DNA of 61,216 nt from a virus (IMGVR_UViG_3300022221_000265:1-61216), one strand, 5' to 3'; counted from the first letter of the stretch, positions 3,605 through 58,095 are shown. Made by a program: numbers and translations. Notes: a model not told the origin generated them from the sequence alone.

Positions 3605-3680
3605 TCCCCGGTAGCTCAGTTGGTAGAGCAAATGACTGTTAATCATTGGGTCGGCGGTTCGAGCCCGTCCCGGGGAGCCA
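3605..3680 (+). tRNA. tRNA-Asn (GTT); its 3' part is the prophage attL
   Basis: 76 nt cloverleaf: TCCCCGG/CCGGGGA acceptor, AATGA-CTGTTAA-TCATT anticodon arm, GGCGG-TTCGAGC-CCGTC T arm, CCA end. Confidence 0.97.
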
Positions 3681-5231: not shown

Positions 5232-5728
5232 TTTTTAATTTTATATTTATTAATGATTCTTTGAATGTGAGTTAACGTCAGCTCCTCACCTAGTTCTGCC
5301 TTAATCATTTTTTTAATATCAGGGTGAGGCATTTCGGCCTGGGCGTAAGCCAGGATCAATTTTATCCTCTGCAGTCGTTTGAACTTTGCAAACAGTGGGA
5401 CCCTGATCCTCACTCTGTCCCTCTGTTCGCCCTCCAGGTTGACCTCGTCGAGAATCTGCCAGACAACTAGAAACTGGTCGACGCCAATCGATGCCGCGAT
5501 GCGTATCCATATCGATGACAGGCCCACCTCGGCCAATTCTGCCAGGCGAGGGTCGGCCAGAGGCGCGGCGTCGTTTTTAGTGCAGACATCCAGGTACCCA
5601 CCCCCCTCGGTGGGGGTGGGGGGGTGTGTATGCCGACCCCCCACCCCTACCCCTGAGCCTGGTGTTCTGGGGGTTGTGGGCTGCATAACGTCTGTCCTAC
5701 TGCGCTTTTGATCTTCTGCCATGGTCAT
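5228..5728 (-). CDS. Putative Mor/C-like transcriptional activator
   Basis: IAASIGVDQFLVVWQILD...IRVP resembles the Mor dimerisation region; C-terminal HTH-like LTLTHIQRII. Confidence 0.5.
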   Translation of the reverse strand: MTMAEDQKRSRTDVMQPTTPRTPGSGVGVGGRHTHPPTPTEGGGYLDVCTKNDAAPLADPRLAELAEVGLSSIWIRIAASIGVDQFLVVWQILDEVNLEGEQRDRVRIRVPLFAKFKRLQRIKLILAYAQAEMPHPDIKKMIKAELGEELTLTHIQRIINKYKIKK

Positions 5729-5963
5729 AAGCTCCTGATCTGTATAGGTCGGGGTGTGGGTCTACTGCGCTTTCTGACATTAAACGCAGTACAGAGGAGA
5801 TCCCGGAGGCTGGTGTTTTAGGCCGTTCCATAGGCGAGTTCCGGGGCCGTGCATGGCCCTGCTGCAGGCGTTGCAATCCATAGGTCTGAGGATTAAGGCA
5901 GGGGGCGGCTATCAATGTTCTAGGCGGCTGGCGGACGCGCAAATAGGCCTTTGTGCTAGTCAT
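5697..5963 (-). CDS. Hypothetical phage protein
   Basis: 88 aa ORF overlapping both neighbours in the operon. Confidence 0.45.
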   Translation of the reverse strand: MTSTKAYLRVRQPPRTLIAAPCLNPQTYGLQRLQQGHARPRNSPMERPKTPASGISSVLRLMSESAVDPHPDLYRSGAYDHGRRSKAQ

Positions 5964-6963
5964 TATTAATTTTCCTGATCAGTGGTGTCATGGGTGTCTC
6001 GATTTTTGCCAGTGGGCTGCTCTTATGGACCACCTGAGCCAAGCGTCGGGCAGCGACATGAGCATATATGTCTGAGGTTTTGGGGTCAGCGTGCCCCATC
6101 AAGGCCTGTATGGTTAGGGTATTAACCCCGTCCTCTGCCAGTTCGGTACCGTACAGGTGGCGGGCGGCCTTAGGGCTGAGCTCTCTCCTGGGAACACCGG
6201 CGGCCTCTCCATACTTGATAATCATTTCCCTGATAGCTTTCACCTTAATGCGGCGATTCTCTCCATGGTAGTCATGTGCTGGGATGGTCCTGTTCCTGGT
6301 TGAAATAAAAAGGACCTTCTCACCGTTATCCAGGAGGCGGTCGACCTGCTGCAGCTCAGGGTGGCCGAGATAGGCCTGAATAAATAAAGAGGCATCCAGT
6401 GGCATGGGAACCAGCCGCTCCTTGTTTCCTTTCTCAGTAATACGCACCACCAGCTGCTTATATTTTTTTTCGTCCAGGTAAAAGACCAGGTTTGACTCGT
6501 TGAGCTTTGAAACAAACGACGGGCGCAGGCCTCCACCGATAAATAATGAGAGGATCGTGGCATCCCGTAGGCCCTGGAAAGTATCAAGGTCAGGCTGTTT
6601 TAATAATTTTTCTGCACTGCTTAACTGCATCCCGAAAGGCAGGGGCCGGCCTGCTTTGGGGTAGATAAGATCCTCAGCTGGGTTTGTGTTGATCTTCTGG
6701 TTTTTAAAAAGCCATTTATAAAAACCACGGATGGCAGCAATTAAAGGTCGGCGGGTCCTGGCCGACAAACCTTGTTCATGGGCGTGCATGCTGGAAAATT
6801 GCACCAGGTCGTCCCGGGTTAACTCCAGCAGCTGTTTGTCGTTATCAGTGGACCAGTCGACCAGCCTCTCCAGGAAGTTCTTATACTTGTTAGCCGTGGC
6901 CTCAGCATTGCCAACAGTCAGCAGGTGATACTGGGCAAAGTCATTAATTAACTCTTTTTCCAT
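5956..6963 (-). CDS. XerC/D-like tyrosine recombinase
   Basis: Core-binding region (IAAIRGFYKWL...NPA), GLR, EKGNKER, SPKAARH, LMGHADPKTSDIY. Confidence 0.9.
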   Translation of the reverse strand: MEKELINDFAQYHLLTVGNAEATANKYKNFLERLVDWSTDNDKQLLELTRDDLVQFSSMHAHEQGLSARTRRPLIAAIRGFYKWLFKNQKINTNPAEDLIYPKAGRPLPFGMQLSSAEKLLKQPDLDTFQGLRDATILSLFIGGGLRPSFVSKLNESNLVFYLDEKKYKQLVVRITEKGNKERLVPMPLDASLFIQAYLGHPELQQVDRLLDNGEKVLFISTRNRTIPAHDYHGENRRIKVKAIREMIIKYGEAAGVPRRELSPKAARHLYGTELAEDGVNTLTIQALMGHADPKTSDIYAHVAARRLAQVVHKSSPLAKIETPMTPLIRKINND

Positions 6964-16935: not shown

Positions 16936-17550
16936 TCACCCCACCCCCTGCATCGTTTCCAGCACCGACTCAAGATCCGGCCCGGCATAGATCGCGGCGT
17001 TGTTTATGTTGGTAATGCCCAGCACGGTCATGACCACCAGCAGGGGCTGCTCGGCGTTGCTGGTTTTCATAATCTGTTTGGCCAGGGTATGGCGGAACCA
17101 GTGCGGCGAACCGCCTCGGCGCAGGCCTGCCAGCTTCACCCACTCGGCCAGGCGCTGCTCAAAACTGCGAACCGATAAACCATCGCCGCGACGGCTGAGG
17201 ATCAAAGGCTCGTCTGCTACCTCGGCAAAGCCCATCTGGCGACGAATAGACAACAACGATCGCAAGGCCCGGCTGGATTGTTTGTTAAGAAAAACGTGAT
17301 AAGTGCGGCCGCCCTTATTAATGGCACCGCGCACAGTAAACTTGTTCTCCCTTAAGGCCTGGCGGGCATCGTCGCAGGTCATGCCGGCCAGCACGCTCAC
17401 CCGCACACCCGTGGCCAGGTCGAACTGCATCCAGGCCAGATCACGCTTGGCCAGCACGTCGTCCACCCGGCGCACGGTCTTGAGCAGGTCGCGCCGCTCA
17501 TGGGCTAAAAAATAGCGATCAAAAACTTGTCTGGGTTTTTTATATGTCAT
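16936..17550 (-). CDS. Short tyrosine recombinase (catalytic domain only)
   Basis: RD...ATGVRVS, NKGG, SPHWFRHT, LGITNINNAAIY; no core-binding domain. Confidence 0.85.
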   Translation of the reverse strand: MTYKKPRQVFDRYFLAHERRDLLKTVRRVDDVLAKRDLAWMQFDLATGVRVSVLAGMTCDDARQALRENKFTVRGAINKGGRTYHVFLNKQSSRALRSLLSIRRQMGFAEVADEPLILSRRGDGLSVRSFEQRLAEWVKLAGLRRGGSPHWFRHTLAKQIMKTSNAEQPLLVVMTVLGITNINNAAIYAGPDLESVLETMQGVG

Positions 17551-17573: not shown

Positions 17574-17912
17574 TTAAAGTAATGATTGGATAACGCGAGT
17601 CACATTGACCGACTCAATAAAACAACGCACTGGCCGATCTCCGTTCCAGTGAATGGCCATCAGCCTGATCATCTGATCAGAGTGCATACTAAAATCAGCA
17701 AAGCCATTACCCGGCAGGGTGCGCTCTATCTTTTGCAGGCCAAAGAAACCGATTAACGTGTACTGATAGGCCTCGTCCTGTCGATCAATCTCCAGTCGAA
17801 AAGGTACATGGTCCAGCAAAAACACCTCGCCCGGCTCAATCCAGCGACGTGACCGGTGGCCCTGGGTGTTCTCGTTTTTCTCCTGCGGCATTAACTCAAT
17901 GATCTCCGCCAT
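17574..17912 (-). CDS. Hypothetical phage protein (MAEIIELMP start)
   Basis: 3' part of track ORF 17574-18035, with a GGAGG RBS. Confidence 0.55.
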   Translation of the reverse strand: MAEIIELMPQEKNENTQGHRSRRWIEPGEVFLLDHVPFRLEIDRQDEAYQYTLIGFFGLQKIERTLPGNGFADFSMHSDQMIRLMAIHWNGDRPVRCFIESVNVTRVIQSLL

Positions 17913-18084
17913 GGTCTGCCCTCCTTTTTTGTCTTTCCCTTGCGATGATCTGCAGGCACTTGTTGACAGGCTCATTTTGTAAAGCGTGATCAAACGATCC
18001 AACAGCCTCGCGCATCTTCGGACCCGCCAGTTCATAAGCGACCCTTAGATCCAGATCGTCCTGATTGTTTGCCTTGTCGCTCAT
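17896..18084 (-). CDS. Hypothetical phage protein
   Basis: Overlapping early ORF. Confidence 0.5.
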   Translation of the reverse strand: MSDKANNQDDLDLRVAYELAGPKMREAVGSFDHALQNEPVNKCLQIIARERQKRRADHGGDH

Positions 18085-18217
18085 GTAACGCCCTCAGCAA
18101 TTCATCACCAAAAAAAGCCATGACCAGCGAACCCTTAAGCACAAACTGATCGCCCGGCTGCAGGTTGTCGTCGACCTGGGTCAGGCCGATCCGTTTTAAA
18201 GCAGCGGGTGCTTCCAT
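18032..18217 (-). CDS. Small early protein (VMAFFGDEL motif), homologue of 49541-49717
   Basis: ATG 18217; 18 of 33 ungapped identities with the islet protein. Confidence 0.75.
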   Translation of the reverse strand: MEAPAALKRIGLTQVDDNLQPGDQFVLKGSLVMAFFGDELLRALHERQGKQSGRSGSKGRL

Positions 18218-18384
18218 ACCTTTTCCCACCAGTAAAGCCAGGCACCGATCACGGCCACCACCGACATCACAATCAAAAAAGAAACCAGCCCCGAGAACAG
18301 CGAGGCCGCGCACACAAAGAACAGGCCGGCCATTAAAAGACCTAACAAAAAATCCTTAAGCATATCGACAAATAATTTTTTCAT
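18196..18384 (-). CDS. Small membrane protein
   Basis: Two transmembrane-like segments. Confidence 0.55.
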   Translation of the reverse strand: MKKLFVDMLKDFLLGLLMAGLFFVCAASLFSGLVSFLIVMSVVAVIGAWLYWWEKVWKHPLL

Positions 18385-18899
18385 CGTTTGCTTTCCTTGC
18401 CCTGTTGGTGCATGTTTTTCAGTCGGTCGAGCAGCTCCAGCTTGGTGCGGATCCCTTCATTAATTGACGCCTCAAGCTTGATCATTTCCTTGTCGTTAAT
18501 GTCGCCGTCCTCAAGTGACTCGCGCATCACCTTGGCCGTGTGACCATCGGCCTCTGCATTCTTGGCCCAGATATCCAGCAGGTGCTGGTCAGACACAAAT
18601 TTAAGATCGGGGTAACGAATGAACACACCGCCCAGGGTCAGGCAATAGGCATCAGCTATCTGATAATCATCAGCAACGAGTTGAACAGTGACCGACTCCT
18701 CCAGGCCGAGCTGGGCGTCGTTTTCGGGGTTGGCTTTGTTGGATAGATAACCGGGGGACTTCATGTTAGCGCGGGCCGCCATGGCCACCGCACCCTCCAT
18801 CCCACTGAATTTATAATTATGGATCGTGTTATAAATCGCCGTCTTTAGATGGCTTGCCTTTAAGTGGCTAAACATTGTGAGCTCACCTCCTCCATTCAC
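18381..18899 (-). CDS. Phage regulatory CII-like protein
   Basis: GAVAMAAR....YLSNKANP....L...E...LGGVFI...EDGDINDKE; located after the Cro-equivalent gene. Confidence 0.75.
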   Translation of the reverse strand: MNGGGELTMFSHLKASHLKTAIYNTIHNYKFSGMEGAVAMAARANMKSPGYLSNKANPENDAQLGLEESVTVQLVADDYQIADAYCLTLGGVFIRYPDLKFVSDQHLLDIWAKNAEADGHTAKVMRESLEDGDINDKEMIKLEASINEGIRTKLELLDRLKNMHQQGKESKR

Positions 18900-44760: not shown

Positions 44761-46167
44761 TTAGTTTCTTGTTGCAATAGTGGTGGCACTCTCCCCTTTC
44801 CTCTGGTTCCCCGGCGTCACGCTGACCTTGCCCGGCCGTTTGGGCGGTTTGGGTTCGCCGTCTTCATCATCAGGGTATGGGTTGATCTCTTTGCTTTGAC
44901 GTTTGAGTCGATCTTTTTCTTTGGAGGGGTCAACGCCGGCCGCTTCCAGGATGGTCTCGAAGCTAAAGCCCAGGGCTTGCCATTTGAGGGCACGATCGGC
45001 CGCCTGGTTCTGGGTCTCGGTGACACGTTCAGCAAACAGCACAGCAAAATCCTCGTTTTCTGGGTTAATGCCGTTAAGCAATAAATGCAGACGAAAACCC
45101 AGCTCGTAAACAAAGGACTGCTCATCCTGCAGGGCGTCGATCTCCTCAAAAAAATCCTTGCGTAGATCTTCCAGGATGTCCCGGCTCAGGTCTCCCACAT
45201 AACCAAACAAACCTTTGGGAGCAGGAGCACCGGCAAAGAAGGTATCCAGCAGGTGCACCACGTCGGCGATCTGGTTCAGGTTGGCGTCACCTGAGATGGC
45301 TTTGACGTCCCCCTCTCCCTGGATGACATAGTCCGCCGCCTGGTCGTACTTGTCCGCCTCGATGTCGGCTTTGTATTCGGTATAAAACTCATTGGATACG
45401 TTTTTTAGCTGGTGCACTTTGCGCTGCTGGGCCCGGGTCTTTCTCCGGATCACCAGGTCCTCCTCGGTCATGGTGAGTTTTTTCCAGGGGCCGCGAGTGG
45501 CGTCCAGATAAGGCCGACCCATGGCGCCCATGTCGTCGAAGTTGTCCGGATCAAGGCGAACCATGGACAGCCGCCAGAGGGCAAAATATTCGGTAATGGT
45601 GCCCAGGGTGAGATCATATTGCGCGTAGGCCTTGCGCGGGTCTTTGAATAAACCGGCCTCGGTAACCTGGGGCACGATGGTCTCGGAGGGCATACGCACC
45701 CCGCCCACGATCTGGTTGTCCTGGTTAAGCACCCACTGGATGGGCAGGTTCCCATCCATGATCAGCCCTCGGGCATCACTTTTGAGCTTGGCCCGTCGGT
45801 GCAGGTTGAGCCGCTGGGCGAAGGTTCGCCAGTGTTTGATCAGGGTCTTGTTGGTGCTTTCGACTTTTAACACCAGCCCACTTTTGATCGCGGTGCTAGC
45901 CATCTTGTTGTGGATACGCTTCACCCGGGTGTCGATGCGGTCCATGTGGCGAATGTCCAGGATCGCCGCCCGCAGGGTGGGGTCGACCCACATTTGCCGG
46001 GTCAGGTAGAGCATTTGATTCTCAGGGGTGGCACGTTTGCCGATCTCGGAGTTATTCACCACGATATGGCCGGCCTGGTGGTGGGCTTTATCAAGTGCCG
46101 TCTGGGGCAGTGAGCCGATCCCCAGTGTCATGTATTGTTTTTGAATGTCCAAAAGTTGTTTGCTCAT
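44761..46167 (-). CDS. Portal protein (start probably MSKQLL at 46167)
   Basis: Between terminase and MuF, ~470 aa, GRPYLD and PKGLFG motifs. Confidence 0.8.
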   Translation of the reverse strand: MSKQLLDIQKQYMTLGIGSLPQTALDKAHHQAGHIVVNNSEIGKRATPENQMLYLTRQMWVDPTLRAAILDIRHMDRIDTRVKRIHNKMASTAIKSGLVLKVESTNKTLIKHWRTFAQRLNLHRRAKLKSDARGLIMDGNLPIQWVLNQDNQIVGGVRMPSETIVPQVTEAGLFKDPRKAYAQYDLTLGTITEYFALWRLSMVRLDPDNFDDMGAMGRPYLDATRGPWKKLTMTEEDLVIRRKTRAQQRKVHQLKNVSNEFYTEYKADIEADKYDQAADYVIQGEGDVKAISGDANLNQIADVVHLLDTFFAGAPAPKGLFGYVGDLSRDILEDLRKDFFEEIDALQDEQSFVYELGFRLHLLLNGINPENEDFAVLFAERVTETQNQAADRALKWQALGFSFETILEAAGVDPSKEKDRLKRQSKEINPYPDDEDGEPKPPKRPGKVSVTPGNQRKGESATTIATRN

Positions 46168-47939
46168 GGTCCTGTCCTGAGTTTGTTTAATTGGTTGAAG
46201 TGCATAAGCCACAAATAGAACTCGGCCAGCCTGGCCTGGGCGATCGGGTCACTGGGGAGCCTGGCGGGTGCTTCGCCCAGCAGCTCCGTGCGGGTTTTCT
46301 TAATGGTGCTGATCATGGTCGGCACACCCAGGGCGCCACGGGTGACCAGGCCCCAGTTGGCTGCCATGTAGGCATCGAAAAGATCATCGCCCAGTTTGCT
46401 GTTGGCCATTTTGTAACTGGAATAGTTGGCCTTGGTGGGTTCGGGTTTGATGTTGACCAACTGCTTGCAAAGCATAAGCAGGTCGGCCACTTCCGGATCG
46501 TGGAAGTCTCTATCCTCGTAATAAGGGATCGCCGCCTGGCCATTGTGGAAAGTGGAGCGCACGGCCTGGGCCATGGCGTGCTTGACCATGCCCTCGAATC
46601 GGATCGGCGCAAAGGGCCACTCGGTCCAGGTGCTGGCCGTGCTCTCACCGTCACCGATGGCGCGACGATTAACCGGGGTCAGCCCCTCCTCGAATAATCG
46701 ATCATTGAGGCTGGTTAGCATGCCGATGCCGTAGGCATCACCCACGGCCACGTCAGGATTGAAGTATCGCCAGTACCCTAGCAGGTCCAGCTCCACCACT
46801 TTCTCGTCGGTACCTGGGGCCCACTGTTTGGAAAAGATCGGCACCGTGAACGATCCGATCTGTTCTAAAACCGTAAAGGCATACTTTGAGGACTCGGGTG
46901 TCTCGCCGTGGCCTGAGTGGTCATAGCCAAACGAGATCAGCCCGCGCTTTTTGTAAGTCTCGCCCGGCATGGGTTGCACAATTTCCAGCCCGGCCTCAAG
47001 ACCCACCTGCAGGGCCCGGCGGAGATACTTCTCCCACACCAGGTTGCGGCTGGCTGTGTTAATGCAAAGAAGCTGGCGGGTAAATTCGTCCTCACTCAAA
47101 TCGGCGCGAATGTTTTTTATAAATTGTTCCTGGAGTAGGCCGAGCTTCATGGCGTTAACCGCATTAAGCAGTGGCAGGGGGTAGTTATAGCTCTCCAGCT
47201 CCAGGTGATCCTCAGTCAACCATCCGGCCTTGATCAGGTTTTTAATGGCCGTCCTGGCTTTATTATTATGTAAGGCACCGATAACGTGATAACTCCCGCC
47301 ATCCAGCAGGTCGGTGAGTGTGTCGGCGCCCTTAAAAACACCGGTGATCCGGATCTGGGGTTTGTTCTCTGAGGTTTTGCTGGCACCCATGCGACGAGTG
47401 GACCCGAGCATGAGCAGGAAACGACTATAAAGCCGATCCTTTGGCATGTCGTCCACCTCCTCGAGGCTGGCCACTGTCAGATCGCCACCATCCACCTGGG
47501 CCATGATGCCCTCGGCAAAGGCTTTGCTCCGGTTCATAAATTCATATTTTGTATCGGCCATCTGTTGGCGGCCGGACTTATAGGCAAGGTAGTTGCTTAA
47601 GATTGAAGATCGACGAATGGCCTCCAGGTGATAGTTGAGGTTTGCGATCGACTGGGTTTGTCTGGGAGCCACAATGCCGAGCTCCTGATCGGGCTTGGTG
47701 GCGTTATGGTGCAGGGTGAAAAGTTCCTTGCAGGCAGTTTTCCCGGTACGGCGCGAGGAAAAATCGATCGTGTTCGGGTGCTGTTCCATTTCTCTCATCT
47801 TGAGAACTTGCACCGCGTCCAGTTCCACGTTGTGGACGTGCTTATGCCAGAGAGCATGATCGCCAGCGTAACGCATCACCTCAGACTCAGCGACATGCTG
47901 CATGCGGACTCGTTGCTTTGCCGATATCCGCTCGCCCAT
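46164..47939 (-). CDS. Terminase large subunit
   Basis: SRRTGKT Walker A, LEEVDD Walker B, FGYD, GDAYG and DDLFDA nuclease motifs. Confidence 0.85.
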   Translation of the reverse strand: MGERISAKQRVRMQHVAESEVMRYAGDHALWHKHVHNVELDAVQVLKMREMEQHPNTIDFSSRRTGKTACKELFTLHHNATKPDQELGIVAPRQTQSIANLNYHLEAIRRSSILSNYLAYKSGRQQMADTKYEFMNRSKAFAEGIMAQVDGGDLTVASLEEVDDMPKDRLYSRFLLMLGSTRRMGASKTSENKPQIRITGVFKGADTLTDLLDGGSYHVIGALHNNKARTAIKNLIKAGWLTEDHLELESYNYPLPLLNAVNAMKLGLLQEQFIKNIRADLSEDEFTRQLLCINTASRNLVWEKYLRRALQVGLEAGLEIVQPMPGETYKKRGLISFGYDHSGHGETPESSKYAFTVLEQIGSFTVPIFSKQWAPGTDEKVVELDLLGYWRYFNPDVAVGDAYGIGMLTSLNDRLFEEGLTPVNRRAIGDGESTASTWTEWPFAPIRFEGMVKHAMAQAVRSTFHNGQAAIPYYEDRDFHDPEVADLLMLCKQLVNIKPEPTKANYSSYKMANSKLGDDLFDAYMAANWGLVTRGALGVPTMISTIKKTRTELLGEAPARLPSDPIAQARLAEFYLWLMHFNQLNKLRTGP

Positions 47940-48259
47940 TAGCAGCTCACAAACTTGCCGGCCCGCAGAAAGCCGTGCCAGTTGCCCACCCAGTGCAAGG
48001 ATGGCGACAACGTCGGCTTGTCTTTATTGCCGTCCCATTGCCAGCACGGATCCACTTTTGGATCGCCGATGTTAAACGAGACCAGGTGAGGAGAGCCGTT
48101 ACAGTCAGGTATGACCGCCATAAGGAAACCGCCCCGGGCAGAAAAATAAAAAGCCCCCAGTCCATGATCGAGGGCAGCCTCGCGTCTGGCCACCTTCACC
48201 GCATCAAAGCTAAGTTTGCATTCAGACACGAGAGACCTCGACCTGGTCGGTGATGTCAC
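47939..48259 (-). CDS. DUF6527-like protein
   Basis: WQWDGNKDKPTLSPSLH....WHGFLRAG. Confidence 0.75.
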   Translation of the reverse strand: MTSPTRSRSLVSECKLSFDAVKVARREAALDHGLGAFYFSARGGFLMAVIPDCNGSPHLVSFNIGDPKVDPCWQWDGNKDKPTLSPSLHWVGNWHGFLRAGKFVSC

Positions 48260-49169
48260 GGCCTCCTGATTCGTCCAGGCTGTTTTTGATCAGTTGTTCA
48301 AGCTTAGCCACCTGGTCAATTGATTTTTGTTGAAACTCCAGAGCTGATTGTTTCTCGTTTTCCTCGTTTGAAAGAAAACCCTGCATGATCTCCTGCTCGT
48401 CCTGCGCCTTGGGAGTCATCGACATATCACCCAGGGCCATGTTGTTCTTGGCCAGCATCTCGATCAGTCGTTTAAGTAAAGGGTGCTCGGAGTGTTCGAG
48501 AAGTTGCTCCTCCTCCTCGGTCTCGGGGTTAAGGTACTTAACAAAATGCACTCCCCCGTCCTTGTCGCCATGCCATACCGGCGCCACCAGATCCACGCCG
48601 TCACGGGCCAGCAGATAAATGATCTCATCCATAATCGTCTGGAACGCTGCTTGACGATGCCCCACTATTGTTTTGATGACACTCGGATCGCCGCTTTGAA
48701 ATGCGGCCGCAAACTTGGCAAACACCTCCACCTTTGAGAGACAAACCCGATAAGGCAGACAAGTCTCATCCTCCAGGTGGATACATTCATCGCATTGAGG
48801 ATAACGGCCAGGCCTGGCCGGGAAAAACATGGAGGTATTTGCATAGCTGCCATGTTTAAGGGCGTTAAGGCGGGTAAATTGCGCCTCCTGGGGAGTGGGG
48901 TGCCCTTTTAAGTTCGCCGCTGACGCGGCCCGCCCTTCGGGTGAAGTTGGCCCAGTCGCATGCGAATGGGCCTTAAAAATATTAACCTCCCAGGCAGCTT
49001 GTGCAGCCTCATGGGAGCAGTGCGGACAGGTGGCATAATATGCCCATGGATGCCAGGGCCGCTCCTCAGCGTCCTCGACACGCTCCGGAGTGGCTTCAAA
49101 CCTATGCCCACAAGAACACAAAAAATGGATAGTATCCGCAGGCTTATCATCAGATCGAGACTTTCCCAT
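48222..49169 (-). CDS. Putative terminase small subunit with zinc ribbons
   Basis: First late gene; CSCGH..CPHC, TGPTSPEGRA, NALKHG. Confidence 0.65.
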   Translation of the reverse strand: MGKSRSDDKPADTIHFLCSCGHRFEATPERVEDAEERPWHPWAYYATCPHCSHEAAQAAWEVNIFKAHSHATGPTSPEGRAASAANLKGHPTPQEAQFTRLNALKHGSYANTSMFFPARPGRYPQCDECIHLEDETCLPYRVCLSKVEVFAKFAAAFQSGDPSVIKTIVGHRQAAFQTIMDEIIYLLARDGVDLVAPVWHGDKDGGVHFVKYLNPETEEEEQLLEHSEHPLLKRLIEMLAKNNMALGDMSMTPKAQDEQEIMQGFLSNEENEKQSALEFQQKSIDQVAKLEQLIKNSLDESGGRDITDQVEVSRV

Positions 49170-49176
49170 CCTCCCA

Positions 49177-49221
49177 AGTCTGGCCAGCCCCCCCTGACAA
49201 AAACAGGGCCAGCCCGGTTAT
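49177..49221 (-). promoter_or_regulatory. Late promoter box, copy 3
   Basis: ATAACC-N4-TGGCCCTGTTTTTGTC core (49196-49221) upstream of the packaging operon. Confidence 0.65.
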
Positions 49222-49228
49222 CAGGCAC

Positions 49229-49256
49229 AAAAAAAGGCGAGCCGGAGCTCGCCTTT
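49229..49256 (-). terminator. Rho-independent terminator (would follow the integrase gene on the excised circle)
   Basis: AAAGGCGAGC-TCCG-GCTCGCCTTT plus T tract. Confidence 0.75.
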
Positions 49257-49301
49257 CCTGAAAATTAACAACCCTGTGAGGTCAGCAACAGATTACAACT
49301 A

Positions 49302-49380
49302 CTAAGCCACCCGAGCAAGCCCAGAGGGCAAAACCAGCCTCAATTTTTTGGTGCCCAGTTCGCCCGTCTCGGGGAGCCAC
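49302..49380 (-). other. attR of the prophage, with the detached integrase C-terminal tail
   Basis: 19 bp tRNA-3' copy (1 mismatch) at 49362-49380; minus frame WLPETGELGTKKLRLVLPSGLARVA*. Confidence 0.85.
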
Positions 49381-49485
49381 TTCCTAGTTACACCAAGTAT
49401 CTCAATCACTTAGTTTCTTATAAAAATTTACTCCATTTCGGGGTAAATTTTTTTCATTCAAATACAGTGTATTATATGGGCCAAT

Positions 49486-49503
49486 GGTTCGAGCCCGTCC
49501 CGG
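49486..49503 (+). repeat. 18 bp exact copy of tRNA-Asn 3656-3673
   Basis: GGTTCGAGCCCGTCCCGG. Confidence 0.85.
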
Positions 49504-49540
49504 ACTAGCGTATTTCGCAACTATGAACCAATTCAAGGAC

Positions 49541-49717
49541 ATGACCAAAAAGAAACGATCTCCAGCTATTAATGTTAAAAAGATGAAGGTTTCCGATAAC
49601 CTGAAACCTGGCGAGCGAGTTAATGTCTCAGCGAAAATGGTAATGGCATTTTTTGGGGATGAATTAATGAGGGAGCTTACAAAAAGGACTCAGGCAAAGA
49701 GTAAGAAAAAAAGTTAG
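49541..49717 (+). CDS. Small basic protein, homologue of prophage gene 18032-18217
   Basis: AAGGA RBS; VSDNLKPG...VMAFFGDELMR. Confidence 0.75.
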   Translation: MTKKKRSPAINVKKMKVSDNLKPGERVNVSAKMVMAFFGDELMRELTKRTQAKSKKKS

Positions 49718-49827
49718 AGTATTAGCTATTTTAAAGCGCATGCTGTAACTGCCAAACTTCGGCGGTCCATTAGCTTAGCGTATCGAAAGCTTTACTTTTT
49801 TCATTGATGACTTTACGGTAATTTAAA

Positions 49828-50745
49828 ATGGGCGTGATAAGAAAATCAGACCCTGAAACAGGGGTGGTCACAACAAAATGCGATACATGGGATGACTTCA
49901 TCTCCGAAATGAGGATCGACGAAGGACGATATATTGGTGATCATATATACCGTGGACATGGAAGCCTAAGTTGGAAACTAGCATCAGTTTTTGAGCGTTG
50001 GATTGATGGACTGAAACAAGGAAATCCAGAGCAAATTATAAGCGATCTGTTTTCAGTTGGAGCACTTGAAAAATTTAGAAATCTATATCTTAAGCCCTTC
50101 ATGTATTTTGCTCAGCGAATTCCAGGCGAACAACTTCCAGATAAAGATGATATTGACGCTTGGCTTGCGCTTGGTAGGCATCACGGACTCATTACACCAA
50201 TTCTGGACTGGAGTCGAAGCCCGTATATTGCTGCCTATTTTGCTAGTATGGAATCCTTCAAAATTGCAGCAGATAAACACCGCCTATTTATAGCTGAAAA
50301 ACACGGCGTGGATGCAGCCAATAAATACGGACCTACATTTGACAGCGTAATGATGGGAATGGGCGGTCCAACTTTACTCCCCCATGAGCCATTCACAATT
50401 TGGGCATTAGCATGCCACGACGATACCTTTATCAAGGATGAATTCAGGCTCTTAGATAAGCCAGAGTTCAGAAATGACAGACTTCACGCTCAGCGGGGAT
50501 TATTCACATTCCTCACACATGATGTACATGTCGATGTAGAAAACTACTTAGCTAGTCGCAATCTAGGCAATCGGTTAGAAAAGTTCATCGTGCCTGGCCA
50601 AGAAGCTGGGAAAGTGCTTCATGACTTGAATCTTATGGGAATCAACAAAGCTGCTTTATTCCCTGATATAACCGGAGCTGCCATGCAAGCAAATATGAGC
50701 TCACATAGATTTAATCATGGTTCAGATAGACGTCCACAAAACTAG
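49828..50745 (+). CDS. FRG domain-containing protein
   Basis: YRGH....W.L, RHHGLITPILDWSRSPYIAAYFA, NDRLHAQRGLF, L..MGIN...LFPD. Confidence 0.88.
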   Translation: MGVIRKSDPETGVVTTKCDTWDDFISEMRIDEGRYIGDHIYRGHGSLSWKLASVFERWIDGLKQGNPEQIISDLFSVGALEKFRNLYLKPFMYFAQRIPGEQLPDKDDIDAWLALGRHHGLITPILDWSRSPYIAAYFASMESFKIAADKHRLFIAEKHGVDAANKYGPTFDSVMMGMGGPTLLPHEPFTIWALACHDDTFIKDEFRLLDKPEFRNDRLHAQRGLFTFLTHDVHVDVENYLASRNLGNRLEKFIVPGQEAGKVLHDLNLMGINKAALFPDITGAAMQANMSSHRFNHGSDRRPQN

Positions 50746-50876
50746 CTACTCGAATAATCATATAGCTAATGCTCTATAAACTCAGACTAAATTGGAAGGT
50801 TAATATAGTGAGGTTGTACTCTGAGTCTGTCTGACAGCTTTATTCGGAGTGATTTTATTTTAACAAGCAATTTGGC

Positions 50877-50984
50877 CTATGGCACACATAAAGAACGCTT
50901 AGAGCCGTCCTTATTTCGGCAGAATTGGGGGAGTAACTGAATTCTGAGGGTTTTGGTTCGTAGTAAGCCCGTCCCGGGGAGCCA
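50877..50984 (-). other. Second attR-like site with a second LSR-type tail
   Basis: Exact 19 bp AGCCCGTCCCGGGGAGCCA at 50966-50984; minus frame WLPGTGLLRTKTLRIQLLP...VP*. Confidence 0.8.
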
Positions 50985-50998
50985 AACACTAATTCACT

Positions 50999-51024
50999 AA
51001 ACCAGCTTTCAAGCTGGTTTTTTT
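50999..51024 (+). terminator. Original tRNA-Asn terminator
   Basis: AAACCAGCTT-TC-AAGCTGGTTT plus T tract, 14 bp after the last tRNA-3' copy. Confidence 0.8.
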
Positions 51025-51151
51025 ATGGCTGAGATTTAAACTGCTCAAACCGCATCGGGGTGGGCAAACACTTCCTTTTTTATTTTTTTGAGTTATGCCA
51101 ATTTGCTAACTACACAAATTGTATATCTCGCCCGAGATAATTAACAAGATC

Positions 51152-51179
51152 AAAAAAACCAGACTAAAGCCTGGTTTTT
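51152..51179. terminator. Bidirectional terminator after galU
   Basis: AAAAACCAG...CTGGTTTTT. Confidence 0.6.
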
Positions 51180-51222
51180 ACTGATTGCAGACATATTTGT
51201 ATGTCGGCTTAAACTACTATTT

Positions 51223-52095
51223 CTATACAACAAGACTCTTTAAATACATCTCAAACTCTGATTTGAGTTCATCATGTTTCAAACCGTACTCTACCGTAGC
51301 CTGTAAATAGCCTAATTTACTACCACAGTCATAACGCTTACCTGTAAATGGGTATGCATATACATCCTCTTCATTCATTAACGCAGCAATTGCATCCGTT
51401 AATTGAATTTCATTCCCTGCTCCGCGCTTTGTAACTTTAAGATATTTGAATATAGTAGATGTTAGGATATACCTGCCTACAACAGCTTGTGTAGAAGGAG
51501 CTACATCTGGTTTTGGCTTTTCTACTATTTCCTGAATTTTTGCCATTCCACCATCTGTGCTAGCTGTCTTGACTATACCATATTTGTCAGTTTCATCCTG
51601 TTCAACTTCCTCAACCCCTAAAATACTGGAGTGGGTTTTTTCATATTTTGATACCATCTGTTTCATACATGAATTAGCCCCCCCATCAATTAAATCGTCT
51701 GCCAAAATAACAGCAAAAGGGTCATTACCAACTACAGGTTCAGCACATAGTACTGCGTGCCCAAGGCCTAAAGCCTCTGCTTGTCGAATATAGATACACG
51801 ATACATGTTCAGGAATAATGCCTCTAACCATATCCAGAAGCTTTGTCTTATTCTTTGCCTCAAGCTCCGCTTCCAACTCATATGCCTTGTCAAAATGGTC
51901 TGGAATTGAGCGTTTATTTCTACCTGTTACAAAAATCATTTGATCAATCCCCGCAGAGACAGCTTCTTCTACTGCATACTGAATAAGCGGCTTATCAACA
52001 ATTGGTAGCATCTCTTTAGGGCTGGCTTTGGTAGCAGGTAAAAATCTGGTTCCCATGCCAGCAACAGGGAATACGGCTTTTCTAATGGTTTTCAT
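51223..52095 (-). CDS. galU: UTP-glucose-1-phosphate uridylyltransferase
   Basis: [37 protein letters not shown]. Confidence 0.97.
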
Positions 52096-52101
52096 TTATA
52101 A

Positions 52102-53430
52102 TTAAACTTTACTTCTTCCAATTGAATAATACTGAAAGCCCAAATTTTTCATCATTTCGGGATCGTAAATATTCCTCCCATCAAAAATGACTGAATCAGC
52201 TAGAGATGATTTAACTTTATCAAAATCTGGGCTTCTAAAAGCACTCCACTCAGTAATAACGATTAGAGCATCTGCTCCTTCCAAAGCTTGCTCAGGTGAG
52301 TCACAAAGCCTTAAATCTTTATGATTACCATAGATTCTTGTTGTCTCCTCCATGGCTTTGGGATCATAAGCCTGAACTGAAGCTCCGCTTTCCCATAATC
52401 TCTCAATAAGAACACGACTAGGTGCCTCTCTCATGTCATCAGTATTAGGTTTAAATGAAAGCCCCCATAGAGCAAATTTTTTACCTTTCAACTTATTGTC
52501 ATAATGTTGAGATATTTTATTATATAAAACTTCTTTTTGACTGGCATTGACATCTTCTACACTATTTAGAAGACGTGGTGTATACCCGTACTGTTCAGCA
52601 GTTCTCGCTAGAGCATTAACATCTTTAGGAAAACAAGAGCCACCATAACCTGCACCAGGATATATGAAGTGATAACCAATTCGTGGATCTGAACCAATCC
52701 CAATTCTTACATTTTCAATATCTGCACCAGTCCTTTCTGCAATATTTGACAACTCATTCATGAAACTTATTTTTGTAGCCAACATGGCATTTGCAGCATA
52801 TTTGGTCAGCTCTGCAGATTTAACATCCATAATCACAAGACGATCATGATTACGATTAAAGGGTGCATACAAACTCTTAAGTATTTCTGCAGTCCTTACG
52901 TTTTCAGTACCAATAACAATACGATCAGGTTTCATGAAATCTTCTAATGCAGCACCTTCCTTCAGGAACTCTGGGTTTGATACCACGTCAAAATCAACAT
53001 TAAGTCCTCTAGTGCTTAAGACTGACTTTATCTCAGATTCAACTTTATCAGCGGTTCCTATAGGAACTGTGGATTTATCAATAACAATTTTATATTCTTC
53101 CATATGCTCACCAATACTTTTAGCAACAGCCAAAACGTATTGAAGATCAGCCGAACCATCCTCATCTGGAGGGGTGCCTACAGCAATAAACTGGAACAAC
53201 CCATGATCAACACCCTGCTTGATATCTGTAGTAAAAGAAAGGCGACCTGATTCAATATTTTTCTTCACAAGTTCATCAAGACCAGGCTCATATATAGGTA
53301 TTCCACCTGAATTCAATAGGTCTATCTTTGATTTATCTATATCAACACAGATAACATCATTCCCCACCTCAGCCAAACATGTCCCTGTTACAAGTCCAAC
53401 ATATCCTGAACCAAAGATTGTGACTTTCAT
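52102..53430 (-). CDS. ugd: UDP-glucose 6-dehydrogenase
   Basis: [34 protein letters not shown]. Confidence 0.95.
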
Positions 53431-53589
53431 AAAATCTCCATTTGAAATTTATAAATGAACTGTTTTTTACAGCGCAACAAACTATTTCGCTATATTATAG
53501 TGCGATTATACATTAAGTAGTTTATGTAACAATATGTTAGAACAGATTTATTTAATACATATAAATATTTCGTGTTGTACAAAATGTAC

Positions 53590-55563
53590 TCAATGAAGAG
53601 GCTTTTGAGGTATAACATTACTATCCGACTTCTTTACATCTTCGCTACTCTCGGGGTGTTTTGATTTTGAGAGTTTCTGATTTTCCCAAACTGGATCTGT
53701 GGTTTGTGATTTTGGGTTAAACTCAATTACCGCATCTTTCAAAATAGCGACAACATTTTCGGCATCAAAATTCATACAGCTTTTCTCAAATAATTTAAGA
53801 TATTGAATTACAACATCGTAAGGTAACTCATTTTCTTCAGCTCTCATTATCTTCGGATGTTCAGTTCCTGAGGCGTTATCGCCTATTAGCAATTCCTCAT
53901 ATAGCTTTTCGCCCGGTCGAAGCCCTGTATATTTTATTTCTATTCCGCTTCGCCGACCCGCATCATCCTTAACATCGTGACCACTTAGATGGATCATACT
54001 TCTTGCTAAATCTACAATCTTAACTGGTTCTCCCATATCAAGCACAAATACGTCCCCACCTTCACCCATTGTAGACGCCTGTAAAACCAGTTGAGAAGCT
54101 TCCGATATTGTCATGAAATATCTTGTGATTTCTGGGTGAGTAACTGTTACCGGCCCACCTTTTCTTATTTGCCCCCTAAATAATGGTACAACAGACCCTG
54201 ATGAACCAAGGACATTACCAAATCTCACCATTGAAAAAATTGGTTTAGTATATTTCCTAGCTAAAGCCTGTAATACTAATTCAGCCATTCGTTTTGTTGC
54301 CCCCATTACATTTGTTGGACGAACGGCTTTATCTGTAGATATGAGAATAAATTTCTCGATATTCGCAGCAATTGCTGCTTCAGCACATCTCCATGTACCA
54401 ATTACATTATTCCATACTCCCTCTATAGGGTTTGATTCTACTAATGGAACATGTTTATAAGCAGCAGCATGATATATTACCTGTATATTCAGAGATTTTA
54501 ATACTGTTTCTACTTTTTCTTTATTTGTAATGGAGCCCAAAACAGGAATGATATCTATTAATTTATTTTTCTCATTCATGTTTAACTCTGAATCAATTTT
54601 ATAGAGCGCAAACTCACTTAGCTCAAACAAAACAAGTCTTTTTGGTGAAAATCTAACAATTTGTCTACACAATTCTGACCCAATTGACCCTCCTGCACCA
54701 CTAACAAATATTGACTTTCCACGAATACTAGAATCGAGCAATGGTTCTCTTGGTGAAACAACATCTCTACCTAACAAATCTTCAATTTTAATTTCTGTAA
54801 TATCACTGACATTTGCTTTGCCAGACAGCAACTCTACCATCCCAGGCACCGATTTAATTTGTACTGGGTAGGGTTCAAGTTTTTCTAAAATCTCATAACG
54901 ACGTTTATGTGTTACAGACGGCAAGGCCAGCAGAACATCTTTTACATTATATTTATCAACTAATTGTTGTAATTTATCTGAAGGATAAACTTTTATACCG
55001 TGAATCTCACTGCCATATAAATCAGTATTATCATCAAGAAAAGCAACAGGTCTGTAATCATTACCAATCTGTAAGATTTTTGTAATTTCTGCACCTGTTG
55101 CCCCTGCGCCGTAAACCACAACAGATTGTTTATAATTATCTACCGCACTAGCATGCAGCAGACTACGTATAAAAAATCGACTTCCACCTATAAATAAAAA
55201 ACTAATCCCCCAAAATAAAATAAATACCGACCTAGGTATCCCTTTTATTTCAAAGAGAATTACAAATAGAACGAACATAAATGTTAAGAGCGTAATTGCC
55301 TTGGCAATAGCTACAATCGCTTTTTGCCCTATATACCTTATTACTGCACGATACAATCCTATTCTTAAGAAAATAGGTATGCTTACGAGTGGAATAAAGA
55401 AAAACAAAGGAATGGCTTGTTTAATATTGACTGGAAACCATTCACCAAGCCTGATTGAAAAAGCTAACCATATTGCACATGACAACAATATCATATCAAA
55501 CAATATCAATATTATTTTTTTATAATTTGGCGATATGGTGGCAATTAATCCAGAGATATTCAT
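53590..55563 (-). CDS. Nucleoside-diphosphate sugar epimerase/dehydratase (WbpM/CapD/PglF-like)
   Basis: N-terminal TM segments, GAGGSIGSE, HAAAYKHVP, STDKAVRPTNVMGATKR. Confidence 0.93.
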   Translation of the reverse strand: MNISGLIATISPNYKKIILILFDMILLSCAIWLAFSIRLGEWFPVNIKQAIPLFFFIPLVSIPIFLRIGLYRAVIRYIGQKAIVAIAKAITLLTFMFVLFVILFEIKGIPRSVFILFWGISFLFIGGSRFFIRSLLHASAVDNYKQSVVVYGAGATGAEITKILQIGNDYRPVAFLDDNTDLYGSEIHGIKVYPSDKLQQLVDKYNVKDVLLALPSVTHKRRYEILEKLEPYPVQIKSVPGMVELLSGKANVSDITEIKIEDLLGRDVVSPREPLLDSSIRGKSIFVSGAGGSIGSELCRQIVRFSPKRLVLFELSEFALYKIDSELNMNEKNKLIDIIPVLGSITNKEKVETVLKSLNIQVIYHAAAYKHVPLVESNPIEGVWNNVIGTWRCAEAAIAANIEKFILISTDKAVRPTNVMGATKRMAELVLQALARKYTKPIFSMVRFGNVLGSSGSVVPLFRGQIRKGGPVTVTHPEITRYFMTISEASQLVLQASTMGEGGDVFVLDMGEPVKIVDLARSMIHLSGHDVKDDAGRRSGIEIKYTGLRPGEKLYEELLIGDNASGTEHPKIMRAEENELPYDVVIQYLKLFEKSCMNFDAENVVAILKDAVIEFNPKSQTTDPVWENQKLSKSKHPESSEDVKKSDSNVIPQKPLH

Positions 55564-55719
55564 ATATGGCTTCTATTGATGATAATTAAAATTTGATTTA
55601 TTTTCATAGTATATATCATATTTTTACTGATGGTTTTTATCGGTATTTATATATACACAGTATACTATTGCGTGTTTTATCTATAACACATTAATAATTA
55701 TAGAATTTTTTAATAATTA

Positions 55720-56757
55720 TTACAGTTCTTGTTGCTCATCAGCACCAGCTTTATATTTTATTGCTATTATTAGAAGGGGTAAATAAGCAATTATAACGCC
55801 AAGCATACCGTCTATTCTCTTACTCGCAACCAGGTATGCCAAGGGAAACAACCAAAATAAGTTTATTGCTCCAACGGCTAGTGATACTTTAGTATGAGAT
55901 TTGTATTTACGTGAAATGTATTGATAGGCATGGTTACGGTGTGCTTTATGAAGCTTCTCTTTCCTAATTAATCGTCTGATGAGAGTAGTTGTAGCATCAA
56001 CAACAAAAACTCCAATGAGTATAATCCACCCCCAAAATAATTCTTCTGCAAACCAAGCTGCCTGTAATGAAAACACACCTAAAGTCATTCCGAGAAATCC
56101 ACTTCCAACATCGCCCATGAATATTTTTGCTGTTGGAAAGTTCCAGAACAAAAACCCTAATACAGCAAAACTTAAGATTAGTGGCATCACCCAGTTACTA
56201 GTATCAGGAAAAAACAAAAGGTAAAGTAAAGTTCCACCTAAGCATACTGTAATTGCCTCTATCCCTGCTATTCCATTAATCCCGTCCATAAAATTAAACA
56301 AATTCAACAACCACACCAGACAAATTGCAGCTAGCACATACCCCCAATATCCTAATTCAAGGGTATAGCCAAATATGACAACGGAATCCAAACCACCCTG
56401 CATGACTAATGCCATAATAACTGCAACAAAATGTAAGAGTAGTCTCCACCTTGCTTTTACATGACTATGGTCATCAAGCCAACCGACTATTGCAATAATA
56501 CTGCCAGGTGCGAAAATCATCCAAAAATTCGTCGAGTCAAGTATATTTTGCAGCCAAAAAACAACTGACATTAATAATGTCACAATAACGACTGAACCTC
56601 CTCCTCCATTAGGAGTCGCCATGGTATGTGAGCTACGATTATTTGGGATTGCAAGAAGGCTCTTATCGATAGCATAACGCCTAATAAAACCTGTAAGCAT
56701 ATATGCTACGATACTAACAAACAGACACCATACTAATATGGAAACATTATTATGCAA
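55720..56757 (-). CDS. Undecaprenyl-phosphate sugar-1-P transferase (WbpL/MraY-like)
   Basis: RSSH..TP.GGG, GWLDD, NFMDGINGIA, IFMGDVGS, HR.HAYQ. Confidence 0.92.
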   Translation of the reverse strand: MHNNVSILVWCLFVSIVAYMLTGFIRRYAIDKSLLAIPNNRSSHTMATPNGGGGSVVIVTLLMSVVFWLQNILDSTNFWMIFAPGSIIAIVGWLDDHSHVKARWRLLLHFVAVIMALVMQGGLDSVVIFGYTLELGYWGYVLAAICLVWLLNLFNFMDGINGIAGIEAITVCLGGTLLYLLFFPDTSNWVMPLILSFAVLGFLFWNFPTAKIFMGDVGSGFLGMTLGVFSLQAAWFAEELFWGWIILIGVFVVDATTTLIRRLIRKEKLHKAHRNHAYQYISRKYKSHTKVSLAVGAINLFWLFPLAYLVASKRIDGMLGVIIAYLPLLIIAIKYKAGADEQQEL

Positions 56758-56976
56758 AGATCACCAGTATTGTTTAATTGTTAACATACACATCTTAACG
56801 CTATTTTGATATTCAAAATATTTCATAAAGCATAAAACTTAATGCTATTCATTATTGATTAATGTTAATGTTTTGCTATGGAATTGCTAATTCTAACTGA
56901 AAAATATCACTTATCAATTCTATTGGATGATCAGCTAACTAAGACTTGATATATAGCCATCATTTTTTTGGATTAT

Positions 56977-58095
56977 TTAATTCAGCAAGTTTTTATAGAT
57001 TTCCATATGCTCCTTGACAACATATTCCACTCTATATCTTTCTTCTGCTATCTTACGTGCATATTTACCCATATCAACCAAAATATTTCGATCAGATAAA
57101 ATACTTATAATTGAATTTGCTAAAGAAACAGAGTCTCCGACAGGTACTAACTTACCATTTTTCTCAGATTCGACAACATCACGACATCCTGGAGCATCTG
57201 TAGTCACAATTGCTCTTCCTGATGCTAGTGCATCTAATAACGACTTTGGCATACCTTCTCGGTATGATGGTAAAACTACTAAACTTGCCTCAGCATAGAC
57301 TGATGGCATGTCAGCGCAATACCCCCACCACTCAACAGGCCCCTCATTCTTCCAGACTTCAAGTTGCTCTATTGTAACTGCTGCTGGATTATCTAAATCT
57401 GCAGGCCCCACTAATGCAAACCTTGCTTTTACTCCATCTGCTTGAAGTATTTTAGCTGCTTCTACAAACTCTTTTACACCTTTATCCCATAACATCCTGG
57501 CTGGCAGGATAACTAATGGAATTCCTTCTGGTAATGGCTTCGGAACAAATTCTCTTAAATTTACTCCTGAACCAGGAATCAAAACATCTTGTCCTTCATT
57601 AAGCACACCCATATCCTGTAACAATTTTCGATCTGTTCTGTTTTGAACAATAACTCGACTATTTTTGTGCCCCAAAGAAAAACGATAAATCCAGCTAACT
57701 AGTTTTTTCACCAGGCCTTGGCGCTGTCTTGTGAATAAATAACCCATCCCACTAATAGCAATAACTACACCTTTCACACTCATTAAGCGTGATAAAATAC
57801 CTCCGTATATAACTGGTTTTATAGTTACTAAGTGTACGAGTTCTGGTTTTAATTTTCTATAGATCTTGAATAAAGCAAATAGTAACCTCAATTCAGAAAA
57901 CGGGTTTTTTCCTCCTCGTGAAATTGGAATTTTTATATAGTTTAGTCCAGCATCTGTTATTTCTTCCTCACGAAGCCCCGTACCAGTTGCAATAGTCACT
58001 TCATATCCTGCCTGTAATGCACCTATGGCTATTGGTAGGCGATGAGAAACGAAAAATGCAGAATCATTTACAACTATCAAAAGCCTTTTTTTCAA
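56977..58095 (-). CDS. GT4 (CapM-like) glycosyltransferase
   Basis: TIKPVIYG, PGSGV, RMLWDKGVKEF, PSYREGMPKSL. Confidence 0.92.
   Translation of the reverse strand: MKKRLLIVVNDSAFFVSHRLPIAIGALQAGYEVTIATGTGLREEEITDAGLNYIKIPISRGGKNPFSELRLLFALFKIYRKLKPELVHLVTIKPVIYGGILSRLMSVKGVVIAISGMGYLFTRQRQGLVKKLVSWIYRFSLGHKNSRVIVQNRTDRKLLQDMGVLNEGQDVLIPGSGVNLREFVPKPLPEGIPLVILPARMLWDKGVKEFVEAAKILQADGVKARFALVGPADLDNPAAVTIEQLEVWKNEGPVEWWGYCADMPSVYAEASLVVLPSYREGMPKSLLDALASGRAIVTTDAPGCRDVVESEKNGKLVPVGDSVSLANSIISILSDRNILVDMGKYARKIAEERYRVEYVVKEHMEIYKNLLN

Follow-up and report, generated by a model that had tools for sequence, protein, structure and literature searches.

An integrase-less islet beside a serine-integrase prophage at a tRNA-Asn gene, possibly a CIME-like mobilisable element

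Why does a 1.6 kb stretch without an integrase gene lie between copies of a tRNA 3' end, next to a prophage that carries its own integrase at the same tRNA gene? The viral sequence IMGVR_UViG_3300022221_000265:1-61216 (61,216 nt in its full length, hereafter the window) comes from a provirus record that includes host DNA at its flanks, and it contains such an islet between the right end of the prophage and the host. A first-pass annotation of the window had proposed either a cassette mobilised in trans by the large serine recombinase (LSR) of the prophage or an alternative right attachment site (attR), and had named a deleted older relative as the simpler alternative. Our answer, held with slightly more belief than doubt, is that the islet is a deletion derivative of a relative of the LSR phage, which has persisted as an element resembling the cis-mobilisable elements (CIMEs), open to mobilisation in trans or in cis, and beside which the prophage was later added in tandem.

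The tRNA-Asn(GTT) gene (ARAGORN; 3605-3680, plus strand) forms the left junction (attL) of the prophage with its 3' end, and its GGTTC motif starts 25 nt before the tRNA end. The 18-nt 3' end, GCCCGTCCCGGGGAGCCA, was observed three times in the window (0.10 expected; 0 of 100 shuffles reached three), perfectly at 3663-3680 and 50967-50984 and with one mismatch (T at 49369) at 49362-49379. A further 'middle copy' at 49486-49503 matches tRNA positions 3656-3673 in 18 of 18 letters, from the T-loop to the middle of the acceptor stem, and is divergent beyond; this 18-mer occurs twice where 0.05 occurrences are expected, a count attained in 1 of 100 shuffles. Pattern matches and shuffles therefore bear out the three tRNA-Asn 3' copies that the first-pass annotation had placed at the right end, with coordinates correct within 1 nt. 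The displaced tRNA terminator that it described is likewise present (50999-51028, plus strand), as a hairpin at 50999-51020 with a 9-bp stem followed by a T run. Beyond the last tRNA copy the order is terminator hairpin, galU and ugd; the closest match to this galU is 68-70% identical. In a scan for promoters and terminators only the tRNA terminator exceeded shuffles, and no Rfam family matched at the middle copy or at the islet ends.

The att copies and the phage genes place the prophage body at 3681-49361 (~45.7 kb). In its right junction, attR1 (49350-49394, plus strand), the core at 49362-49379 has on its left an arm of phage type, GGTGCCCAGT, at 30 nt from the core end and on its right ACACC, which ends at +15. 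Next comes a 105-nt spacer, E0 (49380-49484), in which an inverted repeat rich in AT (49422-49452) and the T run after it may terminate the tRNA transcript if the prophage is absent. The middle copy lies within a site that we call att* (49485-49530, plus strand; the middle site below), which is attL-like, with a tRNA-type left arm, GGTTC, at 25 nt, half a core, and a right arm, GAACC, at +19. The outermost site, attR2 (50955-50984, plus strand), joins a phage-type left arm, GGTTCGTAGT at 30 nt, to the perfect core at 50967-50984. We delimit the islet proper as 49504-50966, bounded on the left by the middle site with its attL spacing and on the right by attR2, where the phage-type arm is followed by the host trailer. 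GC content is ~0.53-0.57 at the prophage end, 0.42-0.45 in the islet and 0.36-0.39 in the host flank.

Apart from a 64-aa gene and an FRG gene there are no sizeable open reading frames (ORFs) between the copies, and this is the content that had been read there before. The small gene (49523-49717, plus strand) starts at the ATG at 49523 (77 aa from 49484) and belongs to a ~60-aa family, whose shared motif, P..L.K.GI..V.DN.P.G....(V/P)......FFGDEL (alignments A4 and A5), it carries. Its product is 49% identical over 43 aa (tblastn, E 4e-10) to a prophage paralogue at 18032-18313 on the minus strand, which the hidden Markov model of the family also matches (E 9e-22). A profile search with the family gave 74 clusters at E<=1e-3, and 0 or 1 of 30 members had weak matches in Pfam and PHROGs; a word-based search with the islet protein matched only itself, and an alignment search of viral contigs and the phage collection found no close relatives. 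The AlphaFold model (pLDDT 77.5) has a single helix at residues 37-62 and an unstructured N-terminal part, and on size alone the gene is a candidate recombination directionality factor. The cargo gene (49828-50745, plus strand; 305 aa) encodes a protein that matches both Pfam FRG (E 4e-16; 60.1 bits against a cut-off of 25) and the PADLOC model PDC-S15 (PDLC04937, E 9.4e-51), which stands for a candidate defence system. Neither the ORF list nor Pfam and PHROG gave any recombinase, replication or packaging gene between 49380 and 50966. Viral contigs and the phage collection held no close relatives of the FRG protein or of 1.8 kb of islet DNA, and no matches to the host junction pattern or the pattern of the middle site.

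Similar islets occur in two other gammaproteobacterial genomes. An alignment of FRG relatives, used to scan metagenomes, gave 514 confirmed loci, 80 of which were kept; a tRNA was present in 5 of these 80, and a tRNA 12-mer was repeated in one alone, locus L102. The small-family profile, run over loci L001-L173 and the window, matched the window (twice), L102 with its duplicate copy, and L052, and no others. At both L102 and L052 the islet lies directly after tRNA-Asn, and there is no prophage. In L102, where the host neighbourhood is that of the window, the order is aminotransferase (72% identical to that of the window), GspH-like pilin, tRNA-Asn, a 96-nt spacer, a counterpart of the middle site running into ACTATGAACCAA, a small-family gene, an FRG gene (36% identical), a degenerate att copy (74%), a Schlafen AlbA_2 gene on the opposite strand, and a perfect att copy. 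This islet thus comprises two units, each with its own 97-nt right end, the two ends being 86% identical. An 11-mer, ACTATGAACCA, occurs in L102 at 5673, 6885 and 8590 in direct orientation; one copy is the right arm of the middle-site counterpart, and the other two open the 97-nt right ends. In L052 an aminotransferase gene and a tRNA-Asn with a different acceptor stem are followed by a ~125-nt spacer, an att-like copy of the right end, a 115-aa small-family gene, a TehB-like methyltransferase gene, a phage-type arm with a 13-nt core, a terminator and galU.

Across the three hosts, therefore, the cargo is an FRG gene (window), an FRG gene plus a Schlafen cassette (L102) or a TehB-like methyltransferase gene (L052). 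No ORF of recombinase size or family was found in the L102 or L052 islets (ORF lists, with Pfam on the main ORFs only). All three islets have a spacer between the tRNA end and the internal site; the spacer sequences are unrelated, and the spacer may be the remnant of a further element that displaced the older tRNA 3' half. The survey of tRNA-Asn loci suggested by the first-pass annotation came out in favour of its proposal, in that L102 and L052 hold islets with the small gene, variable cargo and no recombinase gene found; an islet unique to this locus or ragged across strains, which it had taken to indicate plain decay, is not what we see. Since similar islets stand in L102 and L052, the islet is not private decay.

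Some other loci touch on the same themes. A gene-less repeat of the tRNA-Asn end, trailer and terminator, ~165 nt apart, in L055 (2290-2560, minus strand) could be a scar or a minimal element. A second tRNA-Asn copy in genome G005 (L171, G005:C1:868500-888400) was rejected as an islet; the 16.5 kb island that it delimits has a direct repeat starting in the anticodon loop, and represents a different integration system at tRNA-Asn. The closest FRG relatives of the islet protein, in L091 (67% identical) and L092 (65%), stand in other contexts without the small gene or a tRNA. The L092 contig (129-1478, 6138-6458) also has an IS110-like transposase gene ~3.7 kb upstream of the FRG gene, and there the FRG gene overlaps by 4 nt a 106-aa ORF without a Pfam or PADLOC match, a possible partner gene.

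The arms of the att sites were compared by spacing. Measured from the first G of GGT(T/G)(C/A) to the core end, the left-arm distance is 25 nt in the tRNA and 30-31 nt in all right-end arms. The zinc-ribbon motif of LSR sites is shifted by 5 bp between attB and attP half-sites, as PMC3783163 describes, and the position of the tRNA GGTTC, 5 nt nearer the core than in the phage arms, fits this shift. On the right, the prophage attL arm GCACC ends at +19 (3699) and the attR1 arm ACACC at +15. The left/right spacings are accordingly 25/19 for the prophage attL and 30/15 for attR1, with 25/19 for the middle site of the window and 25/20 for its L102 counterpart. The outer 10-mers of the prophage, GGTGCCCAGT and GGTGCTCAGT, are inverted and match at 9 of 10 positions; the outer 10-mer of the middle site, GGTTCATAGT (the reverse complement of 49520-49529), matches the islet right arm GGTTCGTAGT equally well (9/10). 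The fourth G of GGGG is the centre of the dyad in the rebuilt prophage attP, which scores 16/26 matches (shuffled maxima 12.6±1.1, highest 17). Between the window and L102 the block at the middle site aligns with a score of 25 against 12.1±1.9 for shuffles (maximum 20 in 300), while the adjoining spacer of the window has no similarity to the L102 or L052 spacers. This motif analysis was made after the data had been seen. Given the attL spacing, the 9/10 arm match and the conserved block, the islet proper resembles an element that has a cognate attL/attR pair of its own, akin to the prophage pair and distinct from it.

The reading frames that cross these sites carry a second line of evidence. 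The LSR gene (3639-5231, minus strand; 530 aa) stops inside the tRNA 3' end (...AVWLPGTGSNRRPND, then stop), and its last 14 codons enter the tRNA (...WLPGTGSNRRPND, then stop). Minus-strand translation bears out the related LSR-type tails that had been described at both outer copies: from 49379 down to 49302 the frame reads WLPETGELGTKKLRLVLPSGLARVA to a stop and, once the phage is excised, would supply the end of the LSR frame, and from 50984 down to 50877 it reads WLPGTGLLRTKTLRIQLLPQFCRNKDGSKRSLCVP to a stop at attR2. The right ends of the foreign islets contain tail frames as well, WLPGTGLLGNRELNIGLPERWQRQSGS in L102 and WLPDRSLLGTILLKLVYPSKSRANAA in L052, each ending in a stop. All four tails share (L/E)L(G/R)(T/N)..L.(L/I)..P, and since the conserved L and P use different codons, past selection on the tail peptide is suggested; the same stretch overlaps the predicted integrase-binding DNA arm, which makes the two causes inseparable.

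Related tails exist because attP lies within the 3' end of the LSR gene in this lineage. Each phage-type left arm of the lineage also codes for the last 25-35 LSR residues, and the tails are relics of LSR frames crossing attP. The alternative tail is thus real as sequence, and most simply a by-product of an attP placed inside the LSR gene. The LSR of a contig in genome G423, 36% identical, has a frame that likewise ends in a tRNA, tRNA-Arg, and frames that cross attP seem to characterise this LSR lineage. In that contig (L178 2950-3100; G423:C93) the LSR reads into tRNA-Arg(CCT), with GGTTCCCAGT ~20 nt before the tRNA end.

The paralogue of the small gene places the family in a phage early module. 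In the prophage this module (minus strand, 18899-16936) consists of cII (18381-18899), the small gene (18032-18313), an ORF (17574-18035) and a short tyrosine recombinase gene (16936-17550). The cII product belongs to the Phage_CP76 family, and across module copies the ORF encodes 115-153 aa and the recombinase is a Phage_integrase-family protein of ~203 aa, below classical integrase size. The module recurs once in G423 and at two places in G447 (L174, L175, L177) in an arrangement matching that of the window prophage. Within the order of genome G002 the small family is present in 3 of 97 genomes; it stands at tRNA-Asn in G002 alone, and in G423 and G447 it sits within the phage early module, not at tRNA-Asn. 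The L102 contig is G138:C11 (shared hits), and G138 belongs to another order, with 2 genomes. The pattern of phage-type arm and core was found in 1 of 401 class-sampled genomes, and that one is G138. This patchiness favours horizontal acquisition and cargo exchange.

That the islet arose by deletion from a relative of an LSR phage has good support, because the small gene comes from a phage module, the arms are of phage type and the tails are fossil LSR ends; the deleted older relative named as the simpler alternative in the first-pass annotation remains its probable source. Passive decay alone does not easily account for several features: the deletion junction shared by the window and L102, the conserved block at the middle site, the fixed arm spacing in three hosts, the perfect outer att copies, the two-unit array in L102, the variable cargo and the patchy distribution. 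As these fit passive decay poorly, we favour the reading of a mobilisable element. Like CIMEs, the islet lies between att sites akin to those of an element that bears an integrase, and it has no recombinase or transfer genes of its own (ORF lists, Pfam).

In the course of events that we propose, an older integrase-less derivative of an LSR phage-like element would have been resident at tRNA-Asn, built on the recurrent plan in which a spacer and an internal att-like site precede a small gene of phage origin and one or two cargo genes that vary, and a phage-type att arm with core closes the element. The 45.7 kb prophage would then have integrated at the tRNA beside it, leaving both junctions well formed. 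The outcome would be a tandem with three usable-looking sites, like the accretion of an integrative and conjugative element (ICE) and a CIME. Islets of this kind may spread either by using LSRs that another element provides in trans or by leaving together with a phage next to them (co-excision, attL x attR2), which would bring along the 1.6 kb cargo and alter the integrase tail. A broader version, which we put forward tentatively and would not expect to hold in full, is that there are minimal integrase-less cassettes at tRNA-Asn with defence-type cargo and a phage-derived small regulator, which own an LSR attL/attR pair, borrow the serine integrases of temperate phages in trans or by co-excision, give the helper a different C-terminal tail, and stack in the manner of integrons as in L102.

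A number of findings weigh against mobility, or against the history proposed for it. The known islets number three in total. A search with the window LSR as query found no LSR in G138, G002 or G003, and vertical inheritance followed by loss is possible, the genomes being incomplete metagenome-assembled genomes in which absence is weak evidence. Contigs from three sediment metagenome runs (X1-X3) gave the assembled order only, with no joint at any att site, although contigs drop rare forms and circles; those of X1, probably the source run, span 45610-58000 without differences, and X2 and X3 gave short identical pieces. Sites rebuilt from the islet's own arms reach 14/26 dyad matches, not above shuffles (12.6±1.1), where the prophage attP itself reaches just 16/26. 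The islet arm GGTTCGTAGT differs from the prophage arm GGTGCCCAGT at 3 of 10 positions. The middle site of the window reads ...CCCGGACTAGCG where the core has ...CCCGGGGAGCCA, so that the last 7 core bases are lost, whereas its L102 counterpart keeps GGGG. If our placement of the crossover centre is correct, the middle site seems to have AC in place of the expected crossover GG; solo excision of the islet is then probably dead, and co-excision the only remaining route. The internal site of L052 has attR-like spacing (33/13), opposite to that of the middle site, and the architecture is therefore not uniform. The right arm of the host attB (the trailer at attR2) is without the expected shifted motif. 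The block at the middle site also lies directly upstream of the small gene, and its conservation could stem from a promoter or operator. For the mobile cassette first proposed for this locus, the recurrence with variable cargo counts in favour, as does the resemblance of its ends to LSR attL/attR sites in spacing. A role of the window prophage's LSR as its mobiliser and excision of the islet on its own are not supported, given the differing outer arms in the one case and the apparent AC in the other.

A rival reading is that the islet is inert: an older related LSR prophage would have lost its integrase and nearly everything else by deletion, and its scar would now be carried passively, by vertical descent or by homologous recombination via the tRNA and flanks, with cargo replaced later and no site-specific mobilisation today. 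We consider this a possible but rather unlikely account. It explains a small gene taken from a phage early module, tails that are fossil LSR ends, a middle site without its crossover bases, the degenerate inner att copy of L102 (74%), the aminotransferase-tRNA-Asn neighbourhood common to all three hosts and the lack of junctions in the X1-X3 contigs; tRNA islands, moreover, usually hold partial tRNAs and degraded elements according to 10.1101/2020.12.28.424599. It does not readily explain why the junction (...ACTATGAACCAA) and the block at the middle site were kept between the window and L102 when the neighbouring spacer is saturated, or why the outer arm motifs hold exact spacing in three hosts and the outer att copies are perfect. 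Two L102 cassettes each bearing its own 97-nt right end (86% identical) are likewise unexpected of a passive scar, as are an islet in 1 of 97 genomes of one order and again in another order, and closest FRG relatives (65-67% identical) that stand in other contexts.

The islet might instead be the right-hand accessory end of the present phage, whose genome would run from 3681 to 50966 with attR2 as the real attR and 49362-49379 as an internal relic. The attR2 core is perfect and that of attR1 has a mismatch, a site that combines the left arm of attR2 with the right arm of attL has 15/26 dyad matches with the same centre as the prophage attP, and accessory defence genes often adjoin attP. We nevertheless regard this as improbable, as it is the attR1 arm that pairs 9/10 with the LSR-side arm and the attR2 arm departs from it at 3 of 10 positions. 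In L102 and L052, too, equivalent islets occur with no prophage beside them, and GC content drops from ~0.53-0.57 at the prophage end to 0.42-0.45 in the islet. That the extra tRNA-like stretches and the tails are a chance resemblance without common history is very improbable: the matches are short and the motif analysis was post hoc, but the shuffle controls and the presence of the same gene family at three loci speak against it.

The LSR has the domains Resolvase (PF00239), Recombinase (PF07508) and Zn_ribbon_recom (PF13408) in one 530-aa protein and matches the PHROG 95 integrase (E 6e-93). Its relatives in viral contigs were at most 32% identical, and its C-terminal part as query matched nothing but itself. 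The prophage encodes three recombinase-like genes in total: besides the LSR gene and that of the early module, a second tyrosine recombinase gene, XerC-like (335 aa; 5956-6963, minus strand), lies ~0.7 kb past the LSR gene, with a 166-aa ORF (5228-5728) between the two.

Tandem accretion, tRNA-island remnants and swapping of the integrase C-terminus are already known ideas. CIMEs are known from accretion with ICEs in streptococci. As in that system, the islet is an att-flanked element without integrase or transfer genes, in tandem with an integrase-bearing element at one target, and there are three att sites with possible separate or joint excision, predicted here from sequence. The partner here, by contrast, is a temperate phage with an LSR and not an ICE with a tyrosine recombinase, the islet has a hallmark small phage gene, and its att arm also codes for an integrase tail. 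Phage-ICE tandems are described in PMC13651849. With each new integration at a tRNA the older elements are displaced outward, and partial tRNA copies and degraded elements stay behind (10.1101/2020.12.28.424599); tycheposons differ from the islets in being defined by their own integrase and replication modules, of which the islets have neither, yet the islets have a defined architecture. The phage Mx8 has its attP inside the integrase gene, and integration swaps the 3' end so that the C-terminus differs between prophage and phage forms (IntP/IntX; PMC6070905); Mx8 Int, however, is a tyrosine recombinase, whereas here an LSR reads into the tRNA and a second, foreign tail stands at attR2.

Phage satellites such as P4, the phage-inducible chromosomal islands (PICIs) and the PICI-like elements (PLEs) are also small islands tied to a helper phage, often with defence functions. 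They differ in having their own integrase and replication or packaging-hijack genes, and the two genes of the islet are of neither kind. PLE uses an LSR with a phage-supplied directionality factor (PMC6002521). The two units of L102, each ending in the same 97-nt end, also bear a likeness to other cassette systems. Integron gene cassettes form arrays of one-gene units that rely on a recombinase encoded elsewhere; unlike them, the islets have no IntI, attI or attC and are bounded by LSR-type att arms at a tRNA. A limited open-access literature search found no description of integrase-less cassettes bounded by serine-integrase att sites, which is weak evidence of absence.

If the reading of a mobilisable element is right, these islets would be the phage-side counterpart of CIMEs and a very cheap route for single defence genes between hosts and aboard phage genomes. 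LSR systems, commonly regarded as tying each phage strictly to a single pair of sites, could then support tandem arrays and alternative excision products, for which the arm spacing supplies concrete site pairs. Should the islets be inert, the locus would still be a clear worked example of the layering of a tRNA island.

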